Origin: Piedraia hortae CBS 480.64
Lineage: Eukaryota
NCBI GenBank assembly: GCA_010093745.1
Contig: MU005957.1
Span: 434,001-498,000, forward strand
Direction of reading: 5' to 3'
DNA length: 64,000 nt
Below are positions 5,422 through 50,068 of this stretch, in pieces. How positions within the stretch are numbered: the stretch's first letter is position 1; every line of letters starts with the position of its first letter. The notes under the pieces are model-generated. The model did no database searches, was not told the origin of the DNA, and saw nothing but the letters and a program-made list of their open reading frames with translations. A program made the translations under genes and the position numbers.

Positions 5422-8016
5422 TCACCGCCAACCTTTCAGCCCGCTCCATGGATCCCCGTCTCCCGCTGGCGGTCCGGGCGGCGGGCCTGGTGGCGGGGGT
5501 GGGGGCTGCCAGCCACGACCAGGCGACTGGAAGCCCCGGTACTGCGGCTGCGGCTGCGGCTGTGGCGACGTGGTATAGTCCTTGGGGTTATACTCGGGAG
5601 TCGTATAAGGCACAGGGTAGCGCGGCGTCGTCGCGGGGCTCGCATGGTTGTGGCCGTTGAACCCTGGTGGCAATCGCTCTGTTGCCTCTACAGAGTTCAC
5701 GCTCATGCGCTCCATTAGACCCCTGAGCCGTGCCTGCTCGCTGCCCTTAGCGGCTTCGATGGCGCCTAGCAACTGGCTGCCCTCGCTGCGCCGATTCTCC
5801 ACAAACGCCTCGACGTTCTGCCGCAAGCTTGCCATTGTCTCCTCCATGGCATCATAGAATTGCAGGGCGCGTTCAAGTCCCGCGTGCAGGTTTACGTAGG
5901 CCTGGTAGATGAGGCGATATTTTGTTAATACCGTGCTCCGTTGGCGTGTAAATGCCTCGTATTTGTCCTGTTCCGCACGCACCCGCTTATCCTGGAGCAA
6001 ATCCCCGTAGCGCCGTGTCAGCTCCTTCATGAGTGCCGCTTGCTTGTGGTTAGCCTGCCAGATTCGCTGCTGGTGTGGCCGGAACTTCTCCAGTTCCTGT
6101 TGAAATAGCGCCGTTTCCTGGCTTGAAACAGCCTTTTTGTTCAGAATGAGCACGTGGCTGATATCATCATTGTGCACCCTGTCCTTGAGATCCCTGAGCA
6201 CCTGCTGCCGCTCGCGCTTGACCAACTGCAGCTTCCGCATCAGTTCTTCCACTCGCTCCACTTGTTGGCTAACGCTTGGCCCTCCGTCGGCCACGTCGTC
6301 ATCCAGCAAGTGACCTTCTTCCGTCTTCCTTGATCCCCCTGCTTTGAGCATTGCCCGTTGGTAGAGCACGTCCGCCTCGTCCGTCTCGCCTGCAGATCGC
6401 ATTTCGTCAAAGTCGCTTTCGTGCTGCTGAAACGTGCGCGACAACTGGGCGTCCGTTGCGCCAGCGGCTTCTACTGCTGTTCGATGTGACTTCAGGTCTG
6501 ACCGCAGCGTTGACGTCAACCTGGATGATGGCTGTTGGGTCCACTCGCCCCCGTACTTGCTCCTCATCTTCTCGCACACTCTCTCTTCCGTGTCCAGCTG
6601 CTTGCTGCAGCTGTCCAAAGACGCGACGATGTTTGAATTAGCCCTCCGTAGCCTGTCAAATATCGACCCAAAGGGACTGTGCCCCGCCAGCTCCGAGCAC
6701 CACTTGCTAAACTCCTCGTCTACGCCCAGGTCTTGGTCAAGGCCGCCCTTTAGAATATTCAGCGAGCCAGGAAGTTTGAGATAATCCAGACTGGCAACCA
6801 GTTCATCGTCTGCAGTCTCAACGCGCTCAGCCTCTGCTCGAATCAGTTTAGCTTTCTCCTCGTCGTACAACGAAGCACTTTCAGTAACGCTCATTGGAAC
6901 GATTTTTTGAAAGATATCTGGGCCAATAATGCGTTGAATGTCTTGCCCATGATAGAGCTCACTGACAGGCATAGCCTTGGCTGCAGGCATCTTGGGGATG
7001 GTCGGTAGCGCGCTCTCTGAAGGTACGGGCTGATGGTATATCATATCATTGTCCCTATTATATTCTTTGAAACGGTCCTGGATCGAGGATACAAGCTTCT
7101 TGGCCATGTCGACCAAGATGCCACCGCTTTCCGACGGCAGCTGACTGTTACTGGATGGGCTGGCCGGGAATGCGTTAGCCGCACGCATGGCCTCTTTGCC
7201 GGCAACCAATCCCGCCTGCAGCCTACAAATTGCCTGGCCGTAGTTGTTTGCCTCAAAATCGGCCTCTGCCTGGTAGTACTGGGCCATGGCGGACATGTGA
7301 TGCTGCTTGGTCTGCACCAGCAATAGCCAGGAGCGCTCGAACACGGCTTTAGAGACACCATCCTGCACGCCTTCAAAAGCTTGGGCATACAGAAAAGACG
7401 ACTGAGCAGCCAGCTTCGCCAGCAAACCGGGCTTTTTCAGGTCCATGACCTGCTTCTCGATGAACACCTCCTGGGCCTGTGCAAGCATGATGCCGACCAG
7501 CGTCTTGACCGTCTCGCGGCTTAGATCCGTCGATGGTGCATGCAGAAAGTTCTCATTGATGTAGGTGAACATGCCGGCGCTGGCTTGGAAGCTGTGGTAT
7601 GCCGTCTTGACGCCAACGTCGGTGTGGCGATCCTGCATCGCGCCATGGCAGGCTAGAACGGCGGCAATGTTGAATATAATGCTGGCTTTCTCGTATGCCA
7701 GGCTGTACTGTGCTGTAGGCTTGTGGGTAAAGGCGTCGAACCAGTTAAAGCTGACCCTGATGTGGTGTTCGTCGACGGGAAAGCGCAGGTCCAGCAGCTC
7801 CAGTTGGCCGTAGTAGCGGTAGAGCAGATCGCGTCCGGCTGCACTATCTCGTCCCGCCCCACGCATGTCCTGCCGTAGCCGGTTCAGCGTGTGGCACTCA
7901 TCGTTGTAGCGTTCCGGGTCGTCGCCATACACTGTCTCGATGTGGTGCTTCAGCGGCCCAACCCAGTCAACTTCGTTCGTGGCCTTGAGCGGACACGAGA
8001 TCATCGGCACCTGCAT
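5422..8016 (-). CDS. BRO1: Vacuolar protein sorting protein Bro1 (Bro1 + V domain, Pro-rich tail)
   Basis: LNRLRQDMRGAG, GRDLLYRYYGQLELLDLRFP, SLAYEKASIIFN, DNDMIYHQ; intronless 864 aa. Confidence 0.95.
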   Translation of the reverse strand: MQVPMISCPLKATNEVDWVGPLKHHIETVYGDDPERYNDECHTLNRLRQDMRGAGRDSAAGRDLLYRYYGQLELLDLRFPVDEHHIRVSFNWFDAFTHKPTAQYSLAYEKASIIFNIAAVLACHGAMQDRHTDVGVKTAYHSFQASAGMFTYINENFLHAPSTDLSRETVKTLVGIMLAQAQEVFIEKQVMDLKKPGLLAKLAAQSSFLYAQAFEGVQDGVSKAVFERSWLLLVQTKQHHMSAMAQYYQAEADFEANNYGQAICRLQAGLVAGKEAMRAANAFPASPSSNSQLPSESGGILVDMAKKLVSSIQDRFKEYNRDNDMIYHQPVPSESALPTIPKMPAAKAMPVSELYHGQDIQRIIGPDIFQKIVPMSVTESASLYDEEKAKLIRAEAERVETADDELVASLDYLKLPGSLNILKGGLDQDLGVDEEFSKWCSELAGHSPFGSIFDRLRRANSNIVASLDSCSKQLDTEERVCEKMRSKYGGEWTQQPSSRLTSTLRSDLKSHRTAVEAAGATDAQLSRTFQQHESDFDEMRSAGETDEADVLYQRAMLKAGGSRKTEEGHLLDDDVADGGPSVSQQVERVEELMRKLQLVKRERQQVLRDLKDRVHNDDISHVLILNKKAVSSQETALFQQELEKFRPHQQRIWQANHKQAALMKELTRRYGDLLQDKRVRAEQDKYEAFTRQRSTVLTKYRLIYQAYVNLHAGLERALQFYDAMEETMASLRQNVEAFVENRRSEGSQLLGAIEAAKGSEQARLRGLMERMSVNSVEATERLPPGFNGHNHASPATTPRYPVPYTTPEYNPKDYTTSPQPQPQPQYRGFQSPGRGWQPPPPPPGPPPGPPAGDGDPWSGLKGWR

Positions 8017-8162
8017 CTCGCTGGATCCGCGCTGGATTGGCGCTGGAGGGCTGACCGCCTCATGGCCGTCGTCGTGACGTGGCGGCTAGAGGACTAGGGT
8101 TAGGATTGAGAGTTTGCTAGTGTACACGTTAAATTACAGTGCCCCGCCCCCGCTACCCCGCT

Positions 8163-9725: not shown

Positions 9726-9843
9726 CGCTCAAGAAATGCGAATTCCGGGAAGAAAATGCAGCAGAAGTGACAGATGCCGGAGTTGAGCCGCTCCAATCAG
9801 CTGGAAAGTTCGAGAAGGTTCCCGTAAAGATAAGGTGTGCGCT

Positions 9844-9870
<27 letters not shown>
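9844..9870. repeat. (CA)n microsatellite in the divergent MDJ1/ARV1 promoter
   Basis: acacacacacacacacacacgcacaca seen directly. Confidence 0.9.
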
Positions 9871-9876
<6 letters not shown>

Positions 9877-23438: not shown

Positions 23439-25450
23439 ATGAAGACTGCTTGGAAAGACATTGCGCCGGTGCCTACGCACCAGGAGTTCCTCGTGGGTTT
23501 TTATTGCCTAGGTTTAATTGTTCAAATGGACTAACTGCACAGGACATTGTGCTCTCTCGCACTCAGCGCCGGTTACCGACCCAGATCAGAGCAGGTTTTA
23601 AGATCACAAGAATTCGCGCGTTTTACACTCGCAAAGTCAAGTTCACCGCCGAAACATTTTCTGAGAAGCTCACGACTATCCTGACGGACTTTCCGCGACT
23701 AACCGACATCCACCCATTCCACCGTGATTTGATGAACACTCTCTACGATGTCAATCACTACCGCACAGCTCTGGGCCAGCTTAATACTGCCAAAGGGTTG
23801 ATTGAGACCGTCTCGAGGGATTATGTTCGGCTACTCAAGTACGCCCAGAGCCTGTTCCAGTGCAAGAGCCTCAAGCGCGCAGCGCTGGGCCGCATGGCAA
23901 CCATCTGCAAGCGACTCAAGGACGTGCTGGTGTACTTGGAGCAGGTTCGGCAGCATCTGGGGCGTCTGCCATCCATTGATCCGAACACGCGCACTCTGCT
24001 CATTTGTGGCTACCCCAATGTGGGCAAGTCCAGTTTCCTCAAGAATATCACGCGGGCCGATGTCGATGTGCAGCCCTATGCCTTCACCACAAAGAGCCTC
24101 TATGTAGGCCACTTTGATTACAAACTGCTGCGCTTCCAGGCCATTGACACGCCGGGAATCTTAGATCACCCGCTAGACGAAATGAACTCGATCGAGTATC
24201 AGAGCATGATAGCAATTGCCCATCTCCGCAGTGCCGTCCTCTACTTCATGGACCTTAGCGAGCAGTGCGGATACAGCGTGCAGGCACAGATGCAGCTGTT
24301 CAAGAGCATTCGGCCGCTCTTCCAGAACAAGCTCGTTTTCATTGTCATCAACAAAATTGATTCCATGCGGCCCGAGGACCTCGATGAGGAGACGCAGACA
24401 CAGTTGCAGGATCTGCTGAAGTCCAGCGAGGTTGAGATGCTGCAGTTATCCTGCACAACCACCGAGGGCTTAATGGCAGTCCGTAACGCCGCATGTGACC
24501 AGCTCCTCGCACAGCGTCATGCGGAGAAGCTGAATGCCTCCAAAACCGCCTCTGGTGAGCCGACGGGTCGCATGAGCGATGTTTTGAAACGCCTGCACGT
24601 TGCGCAGCCAGCAGGCGGTGTTGTGCGTGAAGCATATATCCCGGAGGCCGCTCTCTCGCGCAGAAAGCACTCTACCGCCGACCCCAACCGGCCAAAGGGC
24701 ATTCGCGAAATCGAAGCCGAAAATGGCGGGGCGGGAGTCTTCAATGTAGACCTCAAAGAGCAATATCTCTTGGCCGATCCCTCATGGAAGCACGATAAAG
24801 TGCCCGAGGTGTTCAACGGCATGAACGTCGCCGACTATGCCGGTGACCCAGACATCCTGCAGCGCCTTGCTGAGCTAGAAGAGGAGGAAGCCGCCAACGA
24901 AGCCGAGGGTGTGTACGACGATACCGACCAAGAGTACACACCCGAGGAGATGGAGATCCGAGACAAAGCGGAGATGATCCGGGAGAAGATCCAGCTCATC
25001 AGGAACGAAAACCGCATGCGCAAGACAACAAGCCAGATTCCGCGCTCGAAGAAATCCGTCTCCCTGCAGCAGTTACAAACTGGCCTCAAAGACGCCGGCT
25101 ACGACTTTGAGATGATCGCCAAGCGCGCCAATGAGGCAGCCGCGCGTAAGAGAAAAGCCGTGAATGCCATGGATGTGGACGGCGAGAGTCAAGCGGATGC
25201 AATGGACATTGATCCCACACCAGCCCAGAGGCTGAGGAAGAACATCTCCACCGCTCGTGTCCCTCGTGAAGGTCCCACGGGCGTGACGAACCCTCTCACT
25301 CTTGAGAAGGCGCGGAAACGCGCGAGGTTGGATCAGAGGGGCATGAACAGGAATGCGAGACAGGGCGAGGCGGATCGTCATACTACTGCGTCGAAGCCGA
25401 AGTGGCTACTTGCTGGAAAGAGGAAGATGGGCTCTACAAGAAGCAGATAG
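23439..25450 (+). CDS. NOG1: Nucleolar GTP-binding protein 1 (60S biogenesis)
   Basis: MKTAWKDIAPVPTHQEFL | intron | DIVLSRTQRRLPTQIR; GYPNVGKSS, YAFTTK, DTPG, NKID; C-terminal PKWLLAGKRKMG. Confidence 0.96.
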
Positions 25451-25679: not shown

Positions 25680-26820
25680 TCACACGTCACGCACTTTTGC
25701 ATCTGGCGCAATTACCGGTCCACTCATATCCACTGCCTCCTCGGGTTCGTTCTTGGGATGTTCGGATTCAGGCAGGAACTTTACCTCGTTCCCCGTCTGG
25801 CCAATAACCAGCTTGTTCTCTTTCAGATCGATGACGGCCTGGAAACGTTTCAGCATATCCAGACCCAGAAGGAGATCGACGCCCTTGCCCTCCATGACGG
25901 TAAATGAACAGGGCATTACGTCGTTCCCGATTTTGATAGGAGCGGAGTGGACGCGACCGAGGATCTTTGCCGTTCCAACGCCGCGGGCGACGCCCGCGTA
26001 GCGTTTGTCAATCAGTCGCATTATCTCGCACATTTCGGCGCACCTGGGCGACATGATGGTTGTTTGCGCTCCAGAATCCACAAATGCCTGCACGGCATGA
26101 CGGTTGACTTCGACGGGGATATAGAGCATCGATACGCGAGCAAAGACCTCGGGGTTATGTTCGTACGCAAATTGGAGGTTCTCGTTGACGGCCTGTTGGC
26201 GAATGGTTTCCTCAATCTTGGCTTGCGCTTCGAGGTTGAACGGGTCTTCGTTCAAAATGCGAGCTTGCTCCTCCATCTCGTTTGCAAGGTTGCTTTCTAT
26301 ATGCACGCGCTCCATCCAAACTTCGCGGAACCGCATGGGGTCGTTGATCTCGTTTGCTAACGAAGGCATGTAGTGTTGGATTTGACGGAGGGAGTCGGGG
26401 TTGGCAATGAGGCCTCGACGTGTTGCTTCAATTTCGTCGGCCCCTTGCGGCCGGTGAAAAGGCCCCGTGCCCTGTGTAGGCCGTGGTTGTTGTCTAGCCG
26501 GAGCCTGCTGTTGGCCGACCGGTGCATCGACGATTTGCAGGCCAATGATGTCCTCATCCTGGATCCCTAACGTGCCGAGCGTTATGGTGGTATCGCGCAC
26601 CGCCTGGTTGTGATACCAGAACTGCTGTCTCTCAGGAGGGACGTCAATCTCGGCATGAATAAACGTCTTGAGATCGTCCAACGTAAGATCGTGGGATACA
26701 TCGTAGGCGATCACCTCACGGTCATACTGATGAGCATTGCCAAGAATGGATATGGTAAGGTAAGGCCTAGCGATTTGATCGTCAGCGTCTATTATTCGGA
26801 TGCGCCCTGCTAACTCACAT
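25680..26820 (-). CDS. DDI1: DNA damage-inducible protein Ddi1 (UBL + HDD + retropepsin-like protease)
   Basis: DPFNLEAQAKIEETIRQ, MLYIPVEVN..AFVDSGAQTTIMS, LLLGLDMLKR; ATG reconstructed across intron 26767-26818. Confidence 0.93.
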
Positions 26821-27088
26821 TGTGATGGACACGGTATGAAAAAAAAAACAAGCCACAAACAACGGTGGCCCCGCCCTCATGTCACTCCACCTCAACCCCA
26901 CTTCTGGACCCCCGCATTTGGACCCCGCCATTCGAGTGACGCAATAACGGTCCCGATATCTGATACTGGGACCAATTCACGCCATGAGCTTCTGTGGACT
27001 AGTGTACATGGCCAAACCACCATCTTCGCTCACATAAACAGCATCGATTAAATTATACAGGTTAACAGACTAGGGTATTAACGTTCGC

Positions 27089-29017
27089 TCATCTCCGTAT
27101 CTTGACTTCCTCTTCACCAATCAACCTGACCCTGTACAAACAAGTATTGGGCGCCCCCCAGTTGGTGACAACCCTTACAATAAACTTGTCAAAGCCATTG
27201 GAAGACGCAACTCCAAACCTTTGGACCCAATTGTCACCGTTGACATCATACCTGCCTGTTCCCAGGCAAATGTATTGCGATGCTGGCGGAGTAGTCGCGC
27301 ATCCCGCAGAGTAAGGGCCTTCGAGACCACGCATGTCTGTATCACCTGTCATTTTGCCAGCTCTCGCCCAGAACTCCAAGTCCCTGGGTGCAGACCCAAT
27401 GACATCTTCTTCGCCTGTGGGGACATGCTCCATGACAAACTCTCTCGGAACCACCCTCTTAGGTAGCGTTACGGCAAGTTGGGCCTTTGGGTCTCCATAA
27501 ATGGACGCTGCAGCGCACCAGCAATCTCCTGCTTCCGCCCAACGCTCCAATGCTGCGTTGGGTGTTCGATGAGCAGTGCGAGATGTAAGGTAGATGTCTG
27601 CTTTCGCGCCAAGGGCGGGGGAGAAGAAGTTTTTCTCATGTATGGATTGTTGCATGTTCATTATTATTCTGCTCTGGGCGAGTTCACGCGCCTGTTCGTG
27701 CGAAAGGGATGCTGCAGACATCCTTTGTGAGAGAGCTTTTGCAATTTTTTCTTCGACTTCTATCAAGCTCGAGCCGAACTCTTTGCGGAGCTCACTAAAC
27801 CGCGCATTCATCACATCACGAAATGCATCGGATGTTATAACATGCAGCTTTTCTTCTTTGGCTGCCGATCCATCATTGTCCTTGAGCGCTTCAAGCCGGT
27901 CTGTGTTGCTCTTGACAAAGTCGTTCCAGAGAGACGTGTTCTTCTCTCCGCTCAAACGCTGCTGAAGTGCCTGCCAAAATTGCTCGGGAATGTCTAATTG
28001 GTCGTTGGACTTGCTGACAACAATGAGTGAAGGGAGCATCTCTTGCAGAGATCGCAACGCTTGGTCCTGATGCGTCGTTATCGCTTCTAGGTGGTTGATG
28101 CGCGAAATGTAGTGATCAATGTCCTTTGATTCAGTGTGCAATATTGACATCTTGGGCCACTCGAATGACAGCTGCGGGTAGTCCCATGGGACTGAAAAGA
28201 AGGTCCATACTAAGGCTAGAGCTCCAGCGAGCACTAGAAGTCCAAGCACAGCCTGGGCCCAAGTGTTGAAATTGATTTCTTGCCAAGGCCATTCGAATAC
28301 AGGATTCCCATCCGTGTATTCATGATCAGTGTCAATTGGAGTAAACTGTCGCATATTTCTAAGATTCTGTGGCTCGGAAGAATCGGATTGGTCTGTATCA
28401 CTGCTTGATGGCGAGAGTGGCCCTCTCCGATGCACAACGGGCTGGGGGATTGTACGGCGCCGAATCGCTGAGTCCTCTTGGCTGAGCCGCGTAGCAGCAG
28501 TTCTGCTCATCGCAGTCGGACGGCAAGCCACATTTCCCTGACTTGTAGCATACGATACAGAATCGGTGGATTCTTCTGGTGCAATCTTACTCCCGGTGGT
28601 TACATGGGACTTCAAAGCTGGCCGTTTGGCATTCAAGACAGACTCGTTCCTTGAACCAAGCACAGCTTCGGGACTATCAACTGTCCCGTCTGCTGCATCA
28701 GACATGGTCAGCCGATCTGTGTTGGCAAATAACAGAGTTGTTGACAGAATCCTACTCTGCACCTTTGCCTGACCCCGATCGTCCACACGAGGCGAAACAT
28801 TTGCCAGTCTGGGCACCTTCGATTCAACTGCTGACGTGAATCGTTGTTGGTCAAGATCATCGTCATTGTTAAGCCGCACTTTCTTCGATTCGTTTACAGG
28901 TTCATCATGGACTATATGACAGTTTGGCGTGACTCTTGTAATCTTATCAGCAACCTTGGCTGATTCTCTTGCCTCCGCGTTCCGTGTCTGTAATCGCGTC
29001 TGGCGTTTGGGAGGCAT
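27089..29017 (-). CDS. SUN-domain (Sad1/UNC-84) nuclear envelope / spindle pole body protein
   Basis: Single TM (WAQAVLGLLVLAGALALVWTFF), coiled coil, NFFSPALGA..D..LTS, W.EAGDCWC, APRDLEFW, VVTNWGAPNTCLYRVRLIG. Confidence 0.9.
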   Translation of the reverse strand: MPPKRQTRLQTRNAEARESAKVADKITRVTPNCHIVHDEPVNESKKVRLNNDDDLDQQRFTSAVESKVPRLANVSPRVDDRGQAKVQSRILSTTLLFANTDRLTMSDAADGTVDSPEAVLGSRNESVLNAKRPALKSHVTTGSKIAPEESTDSVSYATSQGNVACRPTAMSRTAATRLSQEDSAIRRRTIPQPVVHRRGPLSPSSSDTDQSDSSEPQNLRNMRQFTPIDTDHEYTDGNPVFEWPWQEINFNTWAQAVLGLLVLAGALALVWTFFSVPWDYPQLSFEWPKMSILHTESKDIDHYISRINHLEAITTHQDQALRSLQEMLPSLIVVSKSNDQLDIPEQFWQALQQRLSGEKNTSLWNDFVKSNTDRLEALKDNDGSAAKEEKLHVITSDAFRDVMNARFSELRKEFGSSLIEVEEKIAKALSQRMSAASLSHEQARELAQSRIIMNMQQSIHEKNFFSPALGAKADIYLTSRTAHRTPNAALERWAEAGDCWCAAASIYGDPKAQLAVTLPKRVVPREFVMEHVPTGEEDVIGSAPRDLEFWARAGKMTGDTDMRGLEGPYSAGCATTPPASQYICLGTGRYDVNGDNWVQRFGVASSNGFDKFIVRVVTNWGAPNTCLYRVRLIGEEEVKIRR

Positions 29018-29339
29018 TGTTTACATGGTTCTACCGGATGACATAGGTTGATTTCCGAACCAGTGATATGATCGATTTGTCTCGTAGATTGCTTAGGTTT
29101 CCTCTCAGCCAGTTGCGATTTAATGGAGCAGCTGCTGTAGGTGACTTTGCTGATTCAGCTCCTTGGTAACGCATTTCTAGCGCAGACGCGGAACAACACC
29201 CGCGCTCCCTGCCCCGCTCCCAAATTTCTTTCTCTTCTCACAATCCACAACACCACTTCCTCCTCGCGCACCTGGAGACATGGCCACACGCTGGTTCTAT
29301 TGAATGGATGTTGACGTGACTACAAGGTCTCTTGCTCAA

Positions 29340-30137
29340 GGATTGGCGCCGCTACATGGGGTGGCCGCCTTCTGTGTGTGCCGCCTGTTTACCTTGAAAT
29401 GTTCATAGGCTGACTTTGACGATAGGTCAAACGGAGTACCGCCCGGCGGCTTTTGCCGCTGGGTGCCGCCACCTCCTGTTGCCCGCCCTAGTGGCGGGCG
29501 ACCAGTCCCATCCGGCCTTGTGCTGCGTTGGGATGCTTTTTGCCTCGGCGGCACGCCGACCCTGACGCTTGATGGGTTCGATCAACATGGTGCGTCGCCT
29601 TGGCCCCCTTGGGATTGACGGCTCCGCTACGGCGGGGTCGTCGCCCCTCTTGAAGGCAGGCAGCCTGGGTTCGGCCATCCGGCCAGTGCGCCGCTTATGA
29701 ACACGGACTCGTGTATCCGATGGATGCACGCTACGCGGAATTTTGGAGCGCCCAAAGGAGCCTGGGAAACTCTAAAGGGCTGATGCTCCCACGAAGAAGT
29801 CGGGCAGAGTCGCCCATGACCCACGGAAAAGTCGTGCCAGATTGCACGCAGCATGTGACGCGATGATGTCACCTACCGAGTTGGAGCAAGGCACGCTCCT
29901 ATAAGTCCTACAGTTGATGGTACTGTTAGGCAGCCAACATTGTCGAAGACCCCAATAAGGGATGAAGACTAAGACAAATGCCGGAGCAGCTATAAGAGTT
30001 GTCCGGCAGCCGGCAGCTGGTAAAGTTGTTCGGCAGAAATATCTTGATGCATTGAAATGGTAAGTCATACTCTCTGCTTCATTCGTGGTTTATCTCGTGG
30101 TGCCAGGTATGTACCCCCGGATCATAAACTAATCTAG
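29340..30137 (+). ncRNA. Candidate large structured non-coding RNA, identity unknown
   Basis: More than 10 consecutive hairpins with G-U pairs on the + strand, including a C(UACG)G-capped 11-bp stem; no credible ORF; splice-like signals at the 3' end; boundaries approximate. Confidence 0.55.
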
Positions 30138-30320
30138 GCAATGGACTGCGATGCGGATGGATGGAAGACGAGACGTGAATCGGGCGAACGTATTGGTCAA
30201 CGTATTGGTCAGTGGATACCTTTGGAATGGACGAATGTATAATATCGATTGTTTACTGTCACTTTTCCACTGTCCGTTGTCTGTTGTCAATCCCTCGCAA
30301 TGAGTACAAAATGTTTTGCA

Positions 30321-31415
30321 CTAGTACAGTCCCTCAACAAGTTTCCTTACCTCTGCATCACCCCCGGCAGCATTCACGATCGTGTCAACTTGGTCCTTCC
30401 CAACTCCGCGTTCAGTCAATGTCGTCTTAAGACCAAGCCTCTCTACCAGGTCAAGGACGGCTTGTCCGACTGCAACGGCGTCCTTTTTGTCATCTCCCGT
30501 TGGCGCAATGCCTATAAAGGGTGCCACACGGGCTATCTGCGCAGCATCGGCTGGGTTCTGGGCCTTGAGCTTGACAACATGGCCGAGGGTCAGACAAGAA
30601 GTTATCCCGTGCGGAATACCATAAGGCGAGCCAAGAGCGTAGCCCAACGAATGGGACAAGCCCAAGCCGCCTTTGGTATTCAAGCCTAGGAATCCCAAAG
30701 AAGCAAATGTTGCCAGTTGAAGATGTGTGATAACGTCCTCGTCCTTTGGATCTTCCTTGTAGCGGGGAAGATACTTGAAAAGCTCGCCGGCAGCCTGCAG
30801 GGTCATCCAGCGACAGGGCATCTCGGTGGCGGTGGGATGATACATGAGTTCTATGGCATGATCAACCGAACGCATTGCAGAGCTCAGCATCAACCAGATT
30901 GGCGTGTGAAGGGTAAATGAACTGTCGTAGAGGACAGCGTTGGGGGCGAGCTGAGGATCGGCCACTCGCGTCTTGCGTCCGTTGGCATCCATGTGCCCGG
31001 CGCCAGAGGTGCATTCGGCCGCGCTCAAGGTGGTGGGGATGGCGATGTGATGTAGCCAGCGCCCGCTGATTTCGTGAAAGCGGTAGGAGATTGTTTTGGC
31101 GCAGTCAATGGGACTACCTCCGCCCAGGGAGACGAGTGTGTCAATGGCTGGGTCCTCGGCCACCTTTCCAGTTGCCTCATCCAGCTGTGCTATGGGAACA
31201 AATTGGCCAATATGATCAAACGTTCCGGCATGTCGTTGATCGAGTAAGCCCTCGACCTGGCCGATGAGGTCTGTCTTGGCAATCGAGGATGTGGTGACGA
31301 TGAAAGCCCGCGACTTGTCGCTGGGAAGACAGTCGAGGAGGTGTTTTTTCACACAGCCGCTTCCATAGTACAGCTGAGCGATGACGTTTGGCTTCCAATA
31401 GCCCATGTCCAACAT
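30321..31415 (-). CDS. Iron-containing alcohol dehydrogenase family protein (maleylacetate reductase-like)
   Basis: LGGGSPIDCAK, IPTTLSAAECT, RSVDHAIE, LSHSLGY, IPHGITSC; start at MLDMGYWKP (31415) or 31406. Confidence 0.88.
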   Translation of the reverse strand: MLDMGYWKPNVIAQLYYGSGCVKKHLLDCLPSDKSRAFIVTTSSIAKTDLIGQVEGLLDQRHAGTFDHIGQFVPIAQLDEATGKVAEDPAIDTLVSLGGGSPIDCAKTISYRFHEISGRWLHHIAIPTTLSAAECTSGAGHMDANGRKTRVADPQLAPNAVLYDSSFTLHTPIWLMLSSAMRSVDHAIELMYHPTATEMPCRWMTLQAAGELFKYLPRYKEDPKDEDVITHLQLATFASLGFLGLNTKGGLGLSHSLGYALGSPYGIPHGITSCLTLGHVVKLKAQNPADAAQIARVAPFIGIAPTGDDKKDAVAVGQAVLDLVERLGLKTTLTERGVGKDQVDTIVNAAGGDAEVRKLVEGLY

Positions 31416-31480
31416 CTTCACAACTTGATTTCGAGCAACTGTCGTTTTGATAAAGTAATCCCTCAGGCGGGCGAAGCTTC

Positions 31481-32438
31481 TCAGCTTTTCCCGAGGACGC
31501 CTCTTATCCACCTCCCCACCTCCTTCAACCGAGCACCATCAACACCCGTCTTCAATCCCAACCCGTGCATCAGCTCCACCAAATCCTCCGTCGCAACATT
31601 CCCCGTCGCACCAGGGCTAAACGGACACCCACCTAATCCACCCACACTCGCATCGAACCTGGTATACCCCTCCTCCAAACACCTAACCACGCAATCTTTC
31701 GCCATAGAATTCGTGTCATGAAAATGCCACCCAACCCTCTTCTTCTCAAACCGTCCTACTTCGCGAAGCATCCCTCCTACCCTCACCGGCGTAGCCGATC
31801 CAGTAGTATCTGAAATCACAACCTCATCGACCCCCTGTAGCCCCAAAACCTCCTCCACCAGCAACGCAACCCTCCCAACCCCGACTACCCCTTCATAAGG
31901 ACAATCAAACGCCGTAGAGACATAAACCCTCCTCCACCTCCCCTCTGAAACCCCCAACGAACCCCTCAACCTCTCCATCGACTCCCCAATCGAACAATTC
32001 GTATTCCGTCGTGAGAAAGTCTCACTCGCGCTTAGCAGGAAGGCGAGGGAATGCTCCCCCCTTTCTTTGCAGAGGGCGTTGAATTCCTCCATCGCTTTCG
32101 CGTTGGGCACGAGCCATTGGTACTTCGTGCCGGGTCGGATGGGGAGGGTGGTGAGGAGGGCGGGTGTATCCCTCATCTTGGATGGTTAGTTAGGGCGGTG
32201 TAGATGTGTGAAAGCGTACCTGTGGAACGAGTTTGGGATTCACGAACGCGCCGGCTTCGATTGTGGGTAGGCCGGTTTCGGAGAGGTTTGCGATGAGGCG
32301 ATGTTTGACCTCCAAGGGGAGGGTGGTGGGCTCGTTTTGGAGACCATCCCGTGGGCTTACTTCGGTTAGGTGGATGGATGTGTGGAGTTGGCGCGGGCGG
32401 ATCCATTGAGGGAGGAGTTTCGTGAGGTGGGTGCGCAT
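31481..32438 (-). CDS. Hydroxymethylglutaryl-CoA lyase family protein (mitochondrial-type)
   Basis: EVSPRDGLQNE, IEAGAFVNPKLVPQ | intron 32177-32219 | MRD; HFHDT; GLGGCPFSPGATGNVATEDLV. Confidence 0.92.
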
Positions 32439-32537
32439 TTGGTTGGTTTCATGAGGAGTTCGCGTCTACATGCGGACTCTCGGGGCTTGGATGGATGAAT
32501 TCAACGCTGGAAACACTATACAAACGCTACAGAACGC

Positions 32538-34185
32538 TCAAAACTTGACCTGAAATCTTGGATTCGTCCTTAACCTTTCACCATAGTAATAAAACGCCCA
32601 GGGAATGGGACACATGGCGAGTGCGACGAACGCGAGGAGGCTATTTCCCCATCCCAGTCCAAGGGCATCGTACATTTGAAGCCCGAACAGAGGAAAGAAG
32701 GCTCCGAGGAGCGACCTCAACACAGTATTCGCCGCCAATGCCGATGCTGGATAACGTCAGCTGTTGCCAAGTCTCAATGGACGGGTACCCCACCAGCATA
32801 TTGCGAATACGTATCGACCAAGTAGGTGTTGATGCACATGAAAGCGGCAATGAGGCCGATTCCAATGATCAATGTACCCAAGAGCGGCACCGCCCATTGC
32901 TCGTTATGCTGTGCTGTCCAGCCGTAGATAAACAAGCCCACAGGAACGGTGAGTCCGGCATACATGAGCGGTGGTAGGCGGAACTCGGGCTTCATCTCGC
33001 CGTTGCCGCGAGTGATAGCCAAGCGCTTCATGATTGGGTCTGATATCTTGCCCAGGATGGCAAGACCAAGCAGCATACCGACGCCCATTCCTATATACCT
33101 GTTCGAAAGTATTAGCGGTGCGGAAGATGGCAAGTGGTATCGACATACACCAGACCAACATGGCTCGCCGAGAAGTGGTAACGTTGTTCAAAGACAAAGG
33201 TATATGTTGTGAAGAGGAGGTATAGAATGCCATATACGATTCCCATGTATAGACACATCAAGGAACAAATGGGCGAGAACAGCATCATCTTAGCTGGACG
33301 GACAAGTGAGCGGATCCAGAGCTCTTTCGTGGAAACTCCAGAATCCAACTTGGATCGAAAAGTTTTATCAGGCGACTCCTTCCTCAGACGTTGGGCCTTT
33401 CTTTCCAGCAAGACAGCAGGATATGTTTCCTTCAACAGCACAAAGGACGCCAAAGTTGAAACGCCATAAGCAATGGAGATGACCCAGAACGACCACCTCC
33501 AACCCGCCGCATCAGCCAAAAATCCGCCTGCAATGGGTCCTATAACGGGTCCCAAAAGAGGACCCATCGCCCAGATAGCCATAGCTGCACCACGCTGTGC
33601 AGGCGGCATGAGATCAGCAATCGTGCCGCCTCCATTTGTTATGGTCGCAACTCCGCAACAACCGGCAAGAAATCGAAAGACGATGAGCGAGGCCATATTT
33701 GGCGCCAACGCGCAGGCTACATTCCAAATCACAAACAGTACATTGAAAACGTGATAGACCATGGCACGACCCAGCATTTCACTCAGCGGCGCTGCCAGAA
33801 GCGGCCCAAAGGCGAAGCCTAGGACAAACACAGATACCACGAACGTTGCGAGGTTTCGATTCTCGGTGTGGAAATCTTTGAGCAGGGCTGGGACGGCTGG
33901 GGCAAACATTGAAGATGCCAACGGAGAGAGAAGCGTCAAGAGTGAAAGCAGGGCTATCTGGGCCCATTTGTGTTTCGGACTCCAGTTCAGTGGATTTGCT
34001 GGATCGTTGGGACCATCCCAGTCTACGATCATCGGCCCCTCGATACCGCTTTCAAGGTCGTTGGTTGCATCAGGTGCAACGCCGACAGATTTCTCGCTAT
34101 AATCATCCTTGATGTTTCTCATATCCTGGAGTTCAATGTCGGATACCTGGCGGCCTGCATCATGGGATGAAGATGCTGTAGCCAT
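32538..34185 (-). CDS. MFS DHA1-family drug:H+ antiporter (2 introns)
   Basis: [64 protein letters not shown]. Confidence 0.93.
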
Positions 34186-34410
34186 GACCAGCACGCATCC
34201 GCAGAGATCGCGTCCTCATGCGCTCGAGGCATTGAATACTCCAGCCCTGCAAAAGTCCTGCGCAAAGGAAGCGCCACCGGGAGAGTCTGGTCCGCGACCC
34301 CGAAGATTCGGAGAACCGGTCATCCGGTAAACCGGATTCGACAAAAGTCAAAAAGAAAGTTTCCTTCCTGGCCCTTGCCATAAGCCATCGCACTTCCACT
34401 TAACTTTTAT

Positions 34411-34411
34411 C

Positions 34412-34446
<35 letters not shown>

Positions 34447-34447
34447 C
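34411..34447. repeat. (CAA)12 microsatellite
   Basis: Perfect caa repeat between the Zn2Cys6 gene 3' end and the MFS start. Confidence 0.95.
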
Positions 34448-34495
34448 TAACCAGGGATATCTTCGTCTAAGCGTTTATAACATTCACATCGTACA

Positions 34496-37289
34496 CTATG
34501 CAGTCTCCTCCCCTAGGACCCGTTCGTCAGCCTCGGTGCTTACGACACCCATGGCCCAAAATAGCCGGGCCACAGCTCGCTTTTCCGTACCTTTGTTCGG
34601 AATGTGCGCAAGGTCGGGTACCTCGCTTGTGCCATTCAGCCGTATATCTTCACTCTTGGCATTTTTGGTGAAGCGTTTGTAGGGCGGCCCTTTTCCTGCC
34701 TGCGCCGCCTTGATCCATGCCGTTTCGATGCCGTGTGCTATAAGTTCGACACTGCCCCATCCCGTGCGTCGTGCAATGTTGACCAGGCGTTGTATTGTGA
34801 AGTGCCTTTGTGATGCATCGCAGTATTGTATCGCTGCAAAGAAGGTAGGCATTGCGCTTTCGCACAAGGCCGCGCTGAGCACGGGATTTGTTGGCTGGCC
34901 TGTTCGATCTAGTGCGATACCTGCACTGATTTGTCCAATGCGTAGCGCGTACTCTTCCGTATCGCGAGCAGCCAGGCCAGCTGCCACATGTGTGGCTGGT
35001 GGCATGCTGGGATGCAGCCTTAAGGTGATGATGAGAGCCATGTTGTAAAGCGCCCATAGACAGCCAATGTCGTAAGAACGGTAGAACAGGGCTGGCCCAA
35101 ACGGCGTCGGCATCTCAGGCTGGTATTCCGATGTGAGCGGTTGGAACGCCTCCCCCAGGCTGGCTGCGAAACGATCCAAGGCTGCACGTAGGCTCGCGTG
35201 GTCCTCTAACGCTATTCTGGTCGCCACCTCCACCTCGGCTGGCGTTGCTGAGGCCATGTCTGCACTTGGTGATGGATTTCGACCTGCGTGCAGATCTCGA
35301 ATTGACCCGTACGCTGCAGGCATGCTCACGTGTTGTGGAGACGGCCCAGCTGTTGTATTCCACGGGCTACCCTTGAGCTGCCATTGCCTTCGCTTGCGCG
35401 CCCGATCTCGGGACGCAAAATCGGCAATACGGCCCAGCAACAGAGTAAGATGATCAAATGAACCATGCACAGCATCAGCACGTCCGATGGCAGCCCGTGG
35501 TGGACATTCTCCCCAACGACTGTAGTCCAGCCTAATTTTCGTCAGCTCGCTGCACATGTTAAATAAAATCAAAGCCTTACATCAATGGATTGCCACTTAT
35601 CAGGCTTTGGTAGGCATCCTGTTTGCAATACCACCAGTACACGTCCTTTAGCATTTCAAAATTGGCCAGATCAATTTCAGGTGGAATGAGCGGTTCATGG
35701 CCAAGGCCTGGATCGTGATACCGCACGGGTCTGCCTACGAGCTGTCCCACCAAGCGTTCATCAAGGTCAGGAATCTGGTCAAGCAACTCATCCTCACCAA
35801 AGGATGGCGGTGGAGGCGACGAGGGATTGGCCATGGACCACTGACGCCTAGCGGCCCGTTCCAATTTCTTACGACAGAAATGGCGAGTCAGACTTACAAA
35901 GTCAGTCTCGATGAACAGTTTGGCTGAACCAGCCAAATGTGTGTTCCATTTCATATGCTCCGCTGCCATGACTTCGTAAAATCCAAGCAGTAGCGAGGCA
36001 GCAATGGTCGTTACCTTTCGACGACGCTTGGGGTCCCCAACCCAAGCGTGCACACGCCGCAGCGCCCAAGAGTAATGTTGCATTGACGGCGTTAACGAAG
36101 CGTTCTTTAGACGGGCGATATGCAAACTGGAGAGGGCCAGCATAGCATGTAGCAAGCCCTGATGGTGAAGAGCTGCCATGGGCATGGCATAGGTCCAGAT
36201 GCCCTGTTGGGACAACGGAATGGGGCTATGAGAGAAAAGAATCGACGTGTTACGGGGCTGACGCTCGAAAATCGACAGGCCAGGCCCCGTCACGGCAATG
36301 AAATGGGCAAAGACACGCGCCGTAGCTGCGTTTTTTAATGGATTCGCAACCCATTCTGGCTTGTACGTAGCGAGCATGCCATCGCCGATAAAGGCATCAC
36401 ATCGACGCATGCGCCAGTCGTCCATAGGCATTCGGTGCTCCATGATGATCCCGTCCAGCGGGCGTTGCGCATCAGCACCTTCAAGTTCATCCTCTGAGTT
36501 AACATCGTAATAATCGTCATCCTGACGCTCAACGGCTGCCTCCAGCAGCAGGTGATTTGGAGACATGGGGTCCGAAGTGAAAACAGGAGTGTTGTAAAGG
36601 TCACCCTCTGTGAAAGCCATGGCTGGAGCATACACGTTCGTAACAGCTGGCTGGAAGCTTCCAGAGGCCGAAAGAGCTGGCTGGGCTCCCAATTCTGACC
36701 CACTTGTTTTCCAAAAGGTCTCGGGAGAAGCGTTTGTCATTTGCTGGGGCATGGGTGGAGGCATTGGCATAAACGGGCCCCCGGCGTACAGTGGTGCCGG
36801 TGGAGGATATGTCCCACACGGTGGATAGAATAAATTGGAGAGATCATCGTTTGTGAAGAACGGCTGTGTAAATGAGGGCTCCTGATGGTGTGGAAGTGAC
36901 AGTGTGTGTGAAGGAAGTGACATTGTGTGTGGTGGAAGCTGCGCTTGCTGCGCAGGAGCAGTGGAAGCGGGCTGAGGATAGTAGGGAACAGTACCGGCAT
37001 CAGATTGATCTTCGCCGGCACGCATTGGAGGAGGAAAGGCGAGGGTAGGCGGCCTAAAGGTTATGGGCTGGTTGTAGCCGTCGCAATGGCGCTTGCTCTT
37101 GATGCAATTGCGACATATCGGTCGCGTCTCGTCACACTTGATTCGCCTCTTGCGACATGTCAGGCACCCCGTTTTGGTACGTTTTCGTGGTTGGTTTGTG
37201 CGCGCAGATCGCGGGTTTGCGCTCGACTTTGCCGCTTTTGCCGTTCGCTCGGCTCCCGCACGCGCGGACGCGTTGCCGGAGCCGTCCAT
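34496..37289 (-). CDS. Zn(II)2Cys6 transcription factor (Fungal_trans_2-type C-terminal domain)
   Basis: [50 protein letters not shown]; intron 35532-35580 joins SGNPLM to [13 protein letters not shown]. Confidence 0.93.
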
Positions 37290-37794
37290 CGGTCGCCTGT
37301 CAGACCTGCGGGGCTGGAATAGAAGATTTTATGGGAAATGTCACCCAGTAATATGTGGGGACCGGGGCTGAGGCCACGCGAGGGCCACGAGAGTGATAGA
37401 TTGACGGGCGCCGAGGTGTCGGGACGGCACGAGCTGCATCCGGTGGCTTTTGTGGACAAGGGCTGGCGCTACAGCTATCTCATTACAAGTTTATAGAGAG
37501 GTCGCCGGAGGAGAAGTGAAGGAAAAAAAAAAAGATTGAGAACGAAGCTGAATTTTAGACTGGCATGACAGTTGACGTCGTTCGGCCCCAGGCCACGCCG
37601 GCGCTAATTACAAAACTTGCTGCATCCAGCGGCCTAATTCGCGCTTCTTCCCTTCTCTTTTGGGGAATTATGGATCCGACGGCAGCCATCCTCCCGCTCC
37701 CGGGCCGGGGCAATCCGAAGAAGGACATTGGGCTGGAGCCCTATTATTAATAGTACACTTTATGCTTGATCATCAGATATCCACACAATGCCTT

Positions 37795-43001: not shown

Positions 43002-43898
43002 ATATGCCCGGCACGGTAAGACATGCATGACTTTGCATCGCCATTGTTTGAAGTTTTAGTGAAGATTTTGAGGCTTAACCGGGAACGAGTTTCCCAACTG
43101 CAGCCGGGAGTTGATACATAATCCTTTCAACCAAAAATATGAACATATGCCTCCAAATACGGAGGGTTGCTCATGAGATAATGAAATCAACCAGTCGCTA
43201 CTGCCAGCAGACAGTATGGTCTCCCAGTCTGCCTATACGTTCATAATCAAGGTTATATCATCCATAAGCCGTTTACATTCACCCTGAATTTTTCCGCTCA
43301 TGAACCTTTCCAAACAAAAGCAATGACAAAAGTCAGAGCATGAAAATCGTGACAAAAGGTTATTACCCACGGTGCCAAGAAAACTTGACTCGTTTTACGG
43401 GTCATGAAAATTTGATGCGAAGCATCTCCGCAAATCGAGCGCACGAAAGATTTCGAAGAGACACAGCAGGGAGAATTTCTCAAGGAGGGCTCCTATAAGC
43501 GTACACAAACGCCCACCCCGAAAAGGGGCAAACAGAATGAACAGATCCCACACTCGGGCTCTGCAAGCGCAGAAATTGGCTGGAAAAGAAGCCATCCTCA
43601 CTCTACATTTCCAAATTCCTTAATCACCCCTGGGTAGCAGAAAAATCTTAAAAACTAGCTGCATGTATTCATAGCAAGAAAAAAAGAAAGAATAAAACAT
43701 ATCTGCCACATCCCATTCCCTCTCACACAATTTCAAACCCCAACAACTCCTCCCAAGGAGGAAAAAAGGAAACTAATCATACACTCACGATGCCATAAAC
43801 GCATAACGCATATCCACATTCCCTGAGAAAAACTCCAATGCAACCCTCTCTAAAAAGATATCTCAGAAAAAAGGAACCAAAAAGTCGGGAGTGAACAG

Positions 43899-44939
43899 TT
43901 ACCACTCCTCCCCCTCCTCCACATTCTCATCATAATCATCAACATCATCACAAACCTCCACTTTCGTCCCTAATGCCTGCTGACCCATTCTGATGAGCTC
44001 TTCAAGTTTGCGGGACATGTCCGTCATTTGGGCATCAGCGAGACGGTCCTGTTTTGCGCGTCTGCGGACGAGACGTTCTGCTTCGGGGGTGACGAAGACT
44101 GCTGATGCGGCGCTGGCGGCACGGGAATGAGAACGGCCCAGGGAATTGGTCGACGCGACGCTTGCGCGGCGGACAGGGGAGTGGTGGGAATAAGAGTGGT
44201 TTTGGATATGGACGGGGGAGAGGGGTCTTGAGCCCCCACTGGGGGAAAGGCGGAGGGAACGGCGATTCGTATAGGACCGTCGGCCGAGGGTTGCGGATCG
44301 GGTAGGGATGCTACCGCATCGGGTTGGGCTGAGGAGCGATTCGTCTGGGACGACCCAGCTGTCTCTGCCTGAGCGGCGGCGTTTGTATGGCGGTCGACTG
44401 GGTGTTTTACTGCTGCTTAGTGGGGTTTCTGCGCCTACATCCGTGGCTTTGGTTGGGGTAGCTTCTTGGTTGTCTTGTTCGAAATCGCCAAGGAATTCGC
44501 GCGGTGGGAGCGGAGAGAGATCATATCCCTTTCCGCCACCAGCATAGAAGCCGCGGACTACGTTCGTACCGAACGTGAAAAGCTTCGCGACGACGAGGAA
44601 CGCGAGACCCGCTAACCCTGCGACCGAGACAGATGGCGCGACGGGCGCAGCGGGCGTTCGGGTTGCGGCTCGCGGGCGGTGATGCTGCCGCTGATCATGG
44701 GCCCTGGCAAGCGTCTCCGGCCCGCCAGGTGAAGATTCATTGACGCAGAAGCAAAACGTATCGGTGGACCAGTCCTGAGCGTCATCGGTTTGGTTGTCCT
44801 CGGCTCGACCGCGTTTGCGGGACAAGGCATCATTGGTGGAGGAGACAAAGTTTGCCGTGGCGGCGGACATGACTGGCGGCGGGTGAAGGAACAGCGGCGG
44901 CGGTGGGAACAACGGCGACGGCAAAGACTGGAGCGACAT
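43899..44939 (-). CDS. Uncharacterised fungal protein (Ser/Arg-rich, C-terminal coiled coil)
   Basis: 346-aa ORF; RGFYAGGGKGY and MSRKLEELIRMGQQALGTKVEV segments look like conserved blocks. Confidence 0.75.
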   Translation of the reverse strand: MSLQSLPSPLFPPPPLFLHPPPVMSAATANFVSSTNDALSRKRGRAEDNQTDDAQDWSTDTFCFCVNESSPGGPETLARAHDQRQHHRPRAATRTPAAPVAPSVSVAGLAGLAFLVVAKLFTFGTNVVRGFYAGGGKGYDLSPLPPREFLGDFEQDNQEATPTKATDVGAETPLSSSKTPSRPPYKRRRSGRDSWVVPDESLLSPTRCGSIPTRSATLGRRSYTNRRSLRLSPSGGSRPLSPVHIQNHSYSHHSPVRRASVASTNSLGRSHSRAASAASAVFVTPEAERLVRRRAKQDRLADAQMTDMSRKLEELIRMGQQALGTKVEVCDDVDDYDENVEEGEEW

Positions 44940-45128
44940 GCGATGGAAACGCGCAAAGTGCGCGGTCGGGTTGTCCCGATAATCTCACGGCTGTTTGGCC
45001 CAGGGTCCCTGTGGCGCGGCTAAAACGCGTGGCGCGTCGCGACTCGCAACTCCCGGGCGCCACGTGCGAGGGATTTCATTGGCTGCGTCGGGCTATTTAG
45101 GAGACTTCAGTTGGTGCATATTTACACA

Positions 45129-48906: not shown

Positions 48907-50068
48907 GTTGGGTGGTCTATAGGCTAGTAGGGCGAGTAAGGCTACAAAGGATGGAAAAGGATGGACTGCCAACCACCGCCGCGATTGCGTCACGTCCAAC
49001 CAAGAGAGCGTTCGGTGCTTGCTGGCTGGTCTGGCGGCCTCCTGTCGCTGGGGACTTGGGGGTCAATCGGGGCGGTGGGGCTGTGGGGCTGCAGACAGCA
49101 CCGGAGTTTTGCCGGCGCATATGCTCAGATGTCTGATTAGATCATCAGATAATATTACAACCCGCATAGGTATTCGTTTGATCATGCATGTGGCAGCCAC
49201 ATGCTGGCCATTTCACTTTCCGCACGAGGGCCATCTTCCTGGTAGAGTCAGCATGAGTGGAGGAAAGCGGCAGGAACATGGGCGATCAAGAGCCGGAGAC
49301 AATCCCATTCATTGCCGAAGCATGTTTCTTGCTGCCCAAGTTTCCGACGACTTTTACTAACTGACGAAATCATGAGCGAACATGAGTTGAGTGCAGCCAG
49401 GGTCACAGTGCTACATCTTTCCATGAAGACTACAAACTTAATTTCTGCATTGCTAGATGTATCATTGAATCGGTGAAAATTGATCGTTCGATATCGGCAG
49501 TGTGTGTGATTCCTGGGATAGCTAAATGGACCCCGCATTATGGCACGACCCGGACCGCACTCGTCGTGACGACGTCCTGTGACGTGACCATGCCAAAGGG
49601 GAATAACTCTCATTGAGGTAAAAACCCTGGGAAGTCCAGTGCCCTATCTACCTCAGGTAGGCGTCTGACAATTGATGACTTCATCCCAAAAATGGGTGGT
49701 CGCTCCTTTTTCATTCAAACTAGGCAGTCGTCATCACTACCCATAAAAGGAAGTCTCTCCTCCCACGAGCAGTGCTCTCAAGACAGATCAGCGACACATT
49801 TCCTTTCTCACACCAGAACAAAGCATCCGGCATCCGCCGTACCGTTCGTTGCTATAGGTATCATAATTATGGCTCAGCAAGCACCCTATCCGGCGAACGC
49901 CCTCCACGGACTGCGTGAGGCAGATGTTGTTATATGACGGGGCCAATGGGATTGGAACTAGATGGAGTGGGACTTGTGGGAGAAGATTCTTGTGAGGGCC
50001 GCGCAACTGGTCTCGACGCCGTTGCCAGGGTGTACGTCACTTGAGGGATATGGCTGCTGTGGCGTAGC

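Follow-up and report, generated by a model that had tools for sequence, protein, structure and literature searches.

The window analysed here, a 64-kb stretch of DNA, is fungal in its gene content, with factors carrying Fungal_trans and Zn_clus domains alongside ordinary housekeeping genes, and its introns are 43-52 nt long with CTAAC or CTGAC branch sites. The locus of interest is a 1,303-nt gap (29018-30320) between the coding regions of two - strand genes, a SUN-domain gene on the left and a gene of the Fe-dependent alcohol dehydrogenase family (Fe-ADH) on the right (Table 1). The gap thus joins the 3' flank of the ADH gene to the 5' flank of SUN, and any + strand RNA within it would be divergent from SUN. 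The gap contains a GC-rich island with a succession of hairpins on the + strand, and all of the stems that the initial annotation had listed from the sequence alone were recovered at their positions, both in the sequence and in our hairpin census.

Table 1 Features of the gap, of its flanking genes and of the - strand gene run to its right. Positions are those of the window.
Feature	Positions	Strand	Description
SUN-domain gene, coding sequence	27092-29017	-	left flank; single ORF, 642 aa, ATG at 29017; Pfam Sad1_UNC, E 3.9e-10
Pyrimidine-rich (CT) tract	29200-29270	+	upstream of the first + ATG (29280), ~200 nt from the SUN ATG; putative core promoter/start region
Spliceosomal intron, 52 nt	29374-29425	+	5' GTGTGT, branch site GCTGAC (29409-29414), 3' TAG; joint in the X2 contig
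6-bp stem tttgac/gtcaaa	29415-29431	+	loop contains the 3' splice site; present only in unspliced RNA
Structured module 1	29432-29562	+	MFE -71.5 kcal/mol; z -4.42 on +
Hairpin A (module 1)	29441-29464	+	10 bp, loop UUUU; pair probability 0.98 in the spliced fold
Hairpin B (module 1)	29478-29502	+	10 bp, loop CUAGU; pair probability 0.92 in the spliced fold
Hairpin C (module 1)	29505-29534	+	
Hairpin D (module 1)	29545-29559	+	alternative to closing helix 29465-29470/29547-29552
Hairpin E	29617-29642	+	11 bp, C(UACG)G tetraloop; pair probability 1.0
Hairpin F	29710-29730	+	9 bp, triloop GAU; pair probability 0.92
Sm-site-like AAUUUUGG	29739-29746	+	lies after hairpin F and before the following stem; compatible with chance
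ATAAGT	29901-29906	+	variant of the 5' splice site found at the 3' ends of Aspergillus telomerase RNAs; may simply belong to a TATAAG box
Structured module 2	29975-30040	+	MFE -31.6 kcal/mol; z -6.11 on +; pair probabilities 0.88-0.99
Hairpin T1 (module 2)	29980-30007	+	tandem with and related to T2; common inner stem CAGCU/AGUUG
Hairpin T2 (module 2)	30009-30034	+	tandem with and related to T1
Intron-like stretch, 78 nt	30060-30137	+	GTAAGT ... CTAAT ... TAG; unspliced in the X2 contig; branch A only 5 nt from AG
Fe-ADH family gene, last exon; catabolic-like run	30321-31538	-	right flank; stop codon 30321-30323; Pfam Fe-ADH, E 6.9e-21, and ADH_Fe_C, E 1.5e-20
HMGL-like gene; catabolic-like run	31481-32185	-	Pfam
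MFS transporter; catabolic-like run	33112-34215	-	Pfam
ORF without Pfam match; catabolic-like run	34496-35581	-	
Zn2Cys6 factor; catabolic-like run	35577-37328	-	Pfam

Two public sequencing runs had contigs over the locus, which we placed on positions 26000-33000, one of DNA (X1) and one RNA-like (X2), the latter typed as RNA by the behaviour of its contig on the locus. The X2 contig (record 7, 7,241 nt) covers 27029-33000 and skips 52 nt at the GT..AG joint 29373|29426, whereas the X1 contig is unspliced, with zero skips across the locus. The branch site of the skipped stretch lies ~11 nt before its AG, as in the other introns of the X2 contig. Since the joint is canonical on the + strand only, is skipped in X2 and is absent from X1, a + strand spliced RNA exists, and the divergent RNA that the initial annotation had proposed from the sequence is thereby borne out; the spliced form is the one retained by the X2 assembly at this intron. 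Two further introns, with CT..AC ends and belonging to - strand genes (32177-32219 and 32747-32793), are also spliced out in this contig, and the contig's poly-T loose end, just past the SUN stop, places the 3' end of the SUN gene near 27029. Proof of the + strand RNA comes from the splice junction only, as contigs otherwise carry no information on strand, ends or level and a multi-gene contig is something other than a single transcript, and contig cover of the rest of the gap, which could stem from neighbouring - strand transcripts or trace DNA, was not counted as evidence of expression. The hairpin modules begin just downstream of the junction, from 29432, and from this position probably lie in the same RNA. 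Upstream of the intron, the CT tract is, to judge by its sequence, a plausible start region, which would make for a bidirectional promoter with SUN.

The - strand gene run from 30321 to 37328 resembles a small catabolic cluster, and the X2 contig spans its Fe-ADH, HMGL-like and MFS genes, continuing past 33000. One further record of each run (X1 record 3 and X2 record 6) touches the locus only by pieces of 22-25 nt (26541-26562 and 27679-27703, 90-95% likeness) with 682 other letters between them; these probably represent another locus with short similar pieces and no rearrangement.

The excess of hairpins is clearest in the count of long stems. On the + strand of 29340-30137 there are five uninterrupted stems of at least 9 bp (G-U pairs allowed, loops of 3-8), against a mean of 0.67 in shuffled sequence and a count of five in none of 300 dinucleotide shuffles, while the - strand of the same stretch has zero stems of at least 8 bp in this census. 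Folding energy gives a more uneven picture. The whole 798 nt folds modestly better than its shuffles and no better on the + strand (z -2.29, 1 of 20 shuffles as good) than on the - strand (z -3.27, 0 of 20). When four sub-stretches were compared with 200 shuffles each on both strands, 29432-29562 gave z -4.42 on + (1 of 200 shuffles as good) vs. -1.94 on -, and 29975-30040 gave z -6.11 (0 of 200) vs. -2.46; the other two, 29600-29740 around hairpin E (z -1.35 on +, -0.26 on -) and 29740-29880 (z -0.53 and -1.34, respectively), did not fold beyond their shuffles. The dense array described in the initial annotation therefore exceeds chance in its stem count and in two short modules and fails to in the two other stretches, and its fold is + strand specific in those modules and not over the 798 nt as a whole.

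A scan of the whole window, in which the folding energy of 120-nt windows was regressed on dinucleotide content (3,196 window-strands, R2 0.68), returned as its two most extreme values 29401-29520 (z -4.63) and 29441-29560 (z -4.37), both on the + strand. Among the next-strongest outliers of the scan, 25241-25360 lies close to where the NOG1 ORF ends and has z about -3.3 on either strand, and two more are antisense to an ORC4-like gene (54801-54920 on +, z -3.3; 54961-55080 on +, z -3.0). Two 18-bp G-U-rich hairpins are present on the - strand at 43684-43724 and 49735-49774, together with further - strand stems of 10-14 bp at 43510-43872, a cluster just downstream of the - strand ORF at 43899-44984.

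The imperfect pairs of the stems are also asymmetric between the strands. We treated the two strands alike, allowing either G.T or A.C besides Watson-Crick pairs in stems of at least 9 bp. By this definition the four hairpins at 29440-29730 contain six G.T and zero A.C pairs (one-sided binomial P 0.016), compared with 123 G.T and 114 A.C in the remaining 93 hairpins of the window, which confirms the + strand G-U asymmetry described in the initial annotation. The 52 hairpins inside Pfam-supported ORFs are balanced on the sense strand (62 G.U vs. 67 A.C), hence transcription alone is not the source of such a bias in this window. The tandem pair at 29980-30034 adds three + strand G-U pairs, at least one of them common to both hairpins by duplication. 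With six positions, and with a T-rich + strand at the locus (AT skew about -0.3) as a caveat, the G.T bias is suggestive, not strong.

Relatives of the locus were sought through the SUN gene. The exact SUN protein was absent from the protein collection searched, and the organism seems to be poorly sampled; a word-based search with this protein returned seven proteins at 26-32% identity. Scanning metagenomes with the single SUN protein gave 67 pattern stretches, none of them a relative, while an alignment of eight SUN rows gave 265 stretches, of which 112 were relatives and 80 loci were kept (21-46% identity over the best segment); for the closest loci, the nearest SUN relatives have an identity of at most 36%. 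Against these 80 distant SUN loci (709,557 nt), blastn of the gap found only two matches of 16-17 nt (E 0.22 and 0.77); the ADH gave no tblastn match at 1e-5, and thus no ADH synteny. A search of 773,557 bases with a covariance model built from the single sequence 29432-29562 likewise gave no match at E <=10 other than the stretch itself. Thirty of the 80 loci, from unrelated fungal SUN genes, had enough upstream DNA to be scanned over 4 kb upstream of SUN on the scale of the window scan, and only 2 of 5,754 window-strands reached z <=-4; both were on the SUN strand and at differing distances from it, which reveals no analogous divergent structure among the 30 loci. The 64-kb window holds no second copy of the gap, and a dispersed repeat is not indicated within it.

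The initial annotation had also stated that the gap has no credible ORF, and neither Pfam, homologue nor codon-position tests contradict this. The longest + strand ORFs have 69 aa (ATG at 29304, in frame across the intron) and 87 aa, the latter only if 30060-30137 is spliced out, and the longest - strand ORFs of the gap in the codon-score set have 98 and 83 aa. Codon-usage scores of the small ORFs, trained on 30 ORFs with 15,045 codons, run from -0.085 to 0.050 and are thus intermediate, as coding chunks score 0.113 (sd 0.089) and non-coding frames -0.196 (sd 0.181). GC content by codon position gives no coding signal in the GC island (0.62/0.70/0.65, vs. e.g. 0.57/0.45/0.64 in aconitase), and 0 of 10 gap ORFs reach the Pfam cut-off. 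A 114-aa - strand ORF over the hairpins drew 41 candidates, none at E <=0.1. Among 1.84 billion proteins, the exon-3 part (54 aa) of the 87-aa ORF had one match (E 1.8e-4), to a repeat protein in which a single short motif was hit six times; we take it as chance. On these grounds the + strand RNA is probably non-coding.

Known structured RNAs were compared by family and by motif. None of the 4,227 families of Rfam 15 reaches its gathering score in the 64-kb window, and at E <=10 the only matches in 28900-30500 are four at chance level (HCV_SL588, SNORD47, P9 and v-snoRNA-1), the best sub-threshold one scoring 21.9 bits against a threshold of 79. This agrees with the initial annotation, which had found no U1-U6, SRP, RNase P or MRP signature. 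Several class-specific readings were considered on the sequence alone and rejected: for RNase P or MRP RNA, the CR-I-like GGAAAAGUC at about 29823 has no partner complementary to it that could form P4; the C-box-like AUGAUGU at 29863-29869 is followed by no CTGA D box on the + strand; neither ANANNA nor ACA boxes were present for an H/ACA RNA, nor AGNN loops for an Rnt1-type substrate; and the UNAAAC repeats of a meiRNA-like RNA occur only about once.

The hypothesis put forward in the initial annotation, a telomerase RNA, did not survive. Telomerase RNA of the Pezizomycotina type is characterised by a CCCUAA template of more than one telomere repeat, a template-adjacent pseudoknot with U-A.U triples and a P6/P6.1 three-way junction, in which the P6.1 stem has 4 bp and an NUNGN loop (PMC3592445, PMC3603654), and CCCUAA is contained in all 13 Aspergillus-group telomerase RNAs (PMC3603654). 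To these are added a 3' cassette of a U-rich Sm site, an adjacent AUAAGU and then the branch point GCUAACU or GCUGACU (PMC3603654), and a size of ~1.9-2.4 kb, with 2,049 nt in N. crassa and 2,425 nt in M. graminicola (PMC3592445, PMC3603654) and an estimated 1,869-2,355 nt in A. oryzae (PMC3603654). At our locus CCCTAA is absent from either strand between 26571 and 32189, its seven matches in the window all falling outside the gap and its vicinity, and the TTAGGG template is not represented by any of its 7- to 9-mer permutations between 26565 and 31682. The ATAAGT is preceded by GGCACGCTCCT, without a U-run, and no GCTAAC or GCTGAC follows between it and 30137; the Sm-like AAUUUUGG, of a type for which we estimate ~0.2 matches by chance in 800 nt, is 155 nt upstream of ATAAGT and not adjacent to it. 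An RNA of ~2 kb would, moreover, have to overlap a neighbouring gene. With template and 3' cassette both failing, we reject telomerase RNA for a TTAGGG-type telomere.

Only one stretch of 9-10 nt in the window fits the template permutations, a telomere-like TAGGGTTAGG (CCTAACCCTA on the - strand) at 8095-8104, in the 77-nt space between the stop of a DnaJ gene (8163) and a BRO1-domain ORF (5422-8085); about three such 9-mers are expected by chance by our own estimate, and it could, we presume, be a promoter element of the Tbf1 type. Just upstream of the DnaJ ORF, at 9842-9871, lies a (GT)n/(CA)n microsatellite.

The locus thus holds an expressed, hairpin-bearing lncRNA candidate of an ordinary kind, with two unusually well-folding modules. 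It resembles the divergent spliced lncRNAs of filamentous fungi in its head-to-head position with a coding gene, its short canonical intron, the lack of a long ORF and an apparent restriction to its species, but it differs from them in having two stretches of extreme, strand-specific folding energy. Our preferred reading, to which we give about an even chance, is a lineage-restricted, spliced, non-coding + strand RNA that shares its promoter with SUN and of which two parts are kept as stable RNA structure. An RNA polymerase II transcript, with ends that we can place only provisionally, would start near the CT tract at 29200-29270 from a promoter head-to-head with SUN, lose the 52-nt intron and then traverse the GC-rich island, where 29432-29562 and 29980-30034 would fold into very stable, strand-specific structures. 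The stems would be kept at the RNA level and not as DNA sites; if they have a function, they may, and here we are guessing, lend resistance to decay or bind protein within a lncRNA that acts locally. Should they be under selection, a poorly sampled fungus would have here a structured RNA gene that has escaped annotation, and the divergent lncRNA would be a clean example of constraint acting on RNA. The main present value of the analysis is negative and practical, in that a telomerase-RNA candidate is removed and the + strand is shown to be transcribed and spliced, with the structural interest narrowed to two short modules.

The stems may also have no RNA function, being neutral GC-rich inverted repeats at the DNA level that happen to lie in an incidental transcript of a bidirectional promoter, and that arose by replication template switching or as sites of dimeric transcription factors upstream of SUN. 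We hold this, the main alternative, to be possible, though less likely. With 420-1,020 nt between them and the SUN ATG, the hairpins are upstream at a promoter-sized distance, and several stems hold CGG/CCG triplets, which are of the kind bound by Zn2Cys6 factors; two genes for such factors are present in the window. Lack of detected conservation, and of an analogous structured stretch upstream of the 30 distant SUN genes, fits neutral repeats as well, as does a - strand that itself folds somewhat better than its shuffles in both modules. Template switching is reported to create or lengthen perfect inverted repeats, yeast promoters included (PMC8794818, PMC13100816), and the locus shares with such repeats its near-perfect short hairpins, its position in promoter-proximal non-coding DNA and a tandem duplicated hairpin. 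Set against this, all six imperfect pairs are G.T on the transcribed + strand, which speaks weakly against the neutral reading and counts against template switching because a purely DNA-level process does not predict it. The hairpins also differ from one another in sequence, and with stems of 9-12 bp and loops of 3-5 nt they are unlike repeated sites for one dimeric factor and longer than typical half-site pairs, again a weak argument, and they probably fall within an exon of a spliced + strand RNA.

A coding role would make the gap a micropeptide gene or the leader of an mRNA, carrying the 69-aa ORF or the 87-aa ORF that ends at 30301-30303, with the hairpins as structure of the leader or coding region. 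We consider this improbable: splicing of the confirmed intron does leave the 69-aa ORF in frame, the candidate second intron has a length divisible by 3 and a GTAAGT donor, and codon scores of -0.020 and -0.007 are not clearly non-coding, but that second intron is unspliced in the X2 contig, the 87-aa ORF comes after very stable hairpins and many other ATGs, and the gap ORFs lack a Pfam match, a period-3 GC signal and, for the exon-3 part, any match beyond the one repeat protein. That the RNA is a divergent member of some other known class of small RNAs (snRNA, snoRNA, RNase P/MRP RNA or SRP RNA), as the Sm-like site flanked by stems and the C-box-like motif might suggest, is very unlikely given Rfam matches that never rise above chance level and the missing D box. 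Telomerase RNA we judge less probable still, to the point of near exclusion. The transcript does look like those of Pezizomycotina and Aspergillus (PMC3592445, PMC3603654), being GC-rich, multi-hairpin, ORF-poor and spliceosome-touched, with an isolated Sm-like site and an isolated ATAAGT. It is unlike them in lacking a CCCUAA template (the gap is also free of 7-mers of a TTAGGG template), an adjacent cassette and an Rfam match, in a space of at most ~1.3 kb between coding regions vs. the 2,049 nt of the Neurospora RNA (PMC3592445), and in an intron that is spliced out normally near the 5' end and not used for 3' end cleavage.

A more specific form of our preferred reading would make the modules at 29432-29562 and 29980-30034 parts of an undescribed, lineage-specific, protein-binding RNP-scaffold RNA rather than of a promoter by-product, transcribed by Pol II and spliced, in which the Sm-like site at 29739-29746 is functional; this we regard as unlikely. 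More speculatively, fungal A-to-I editing might act on the UAG that lies in hairpin B's loop.
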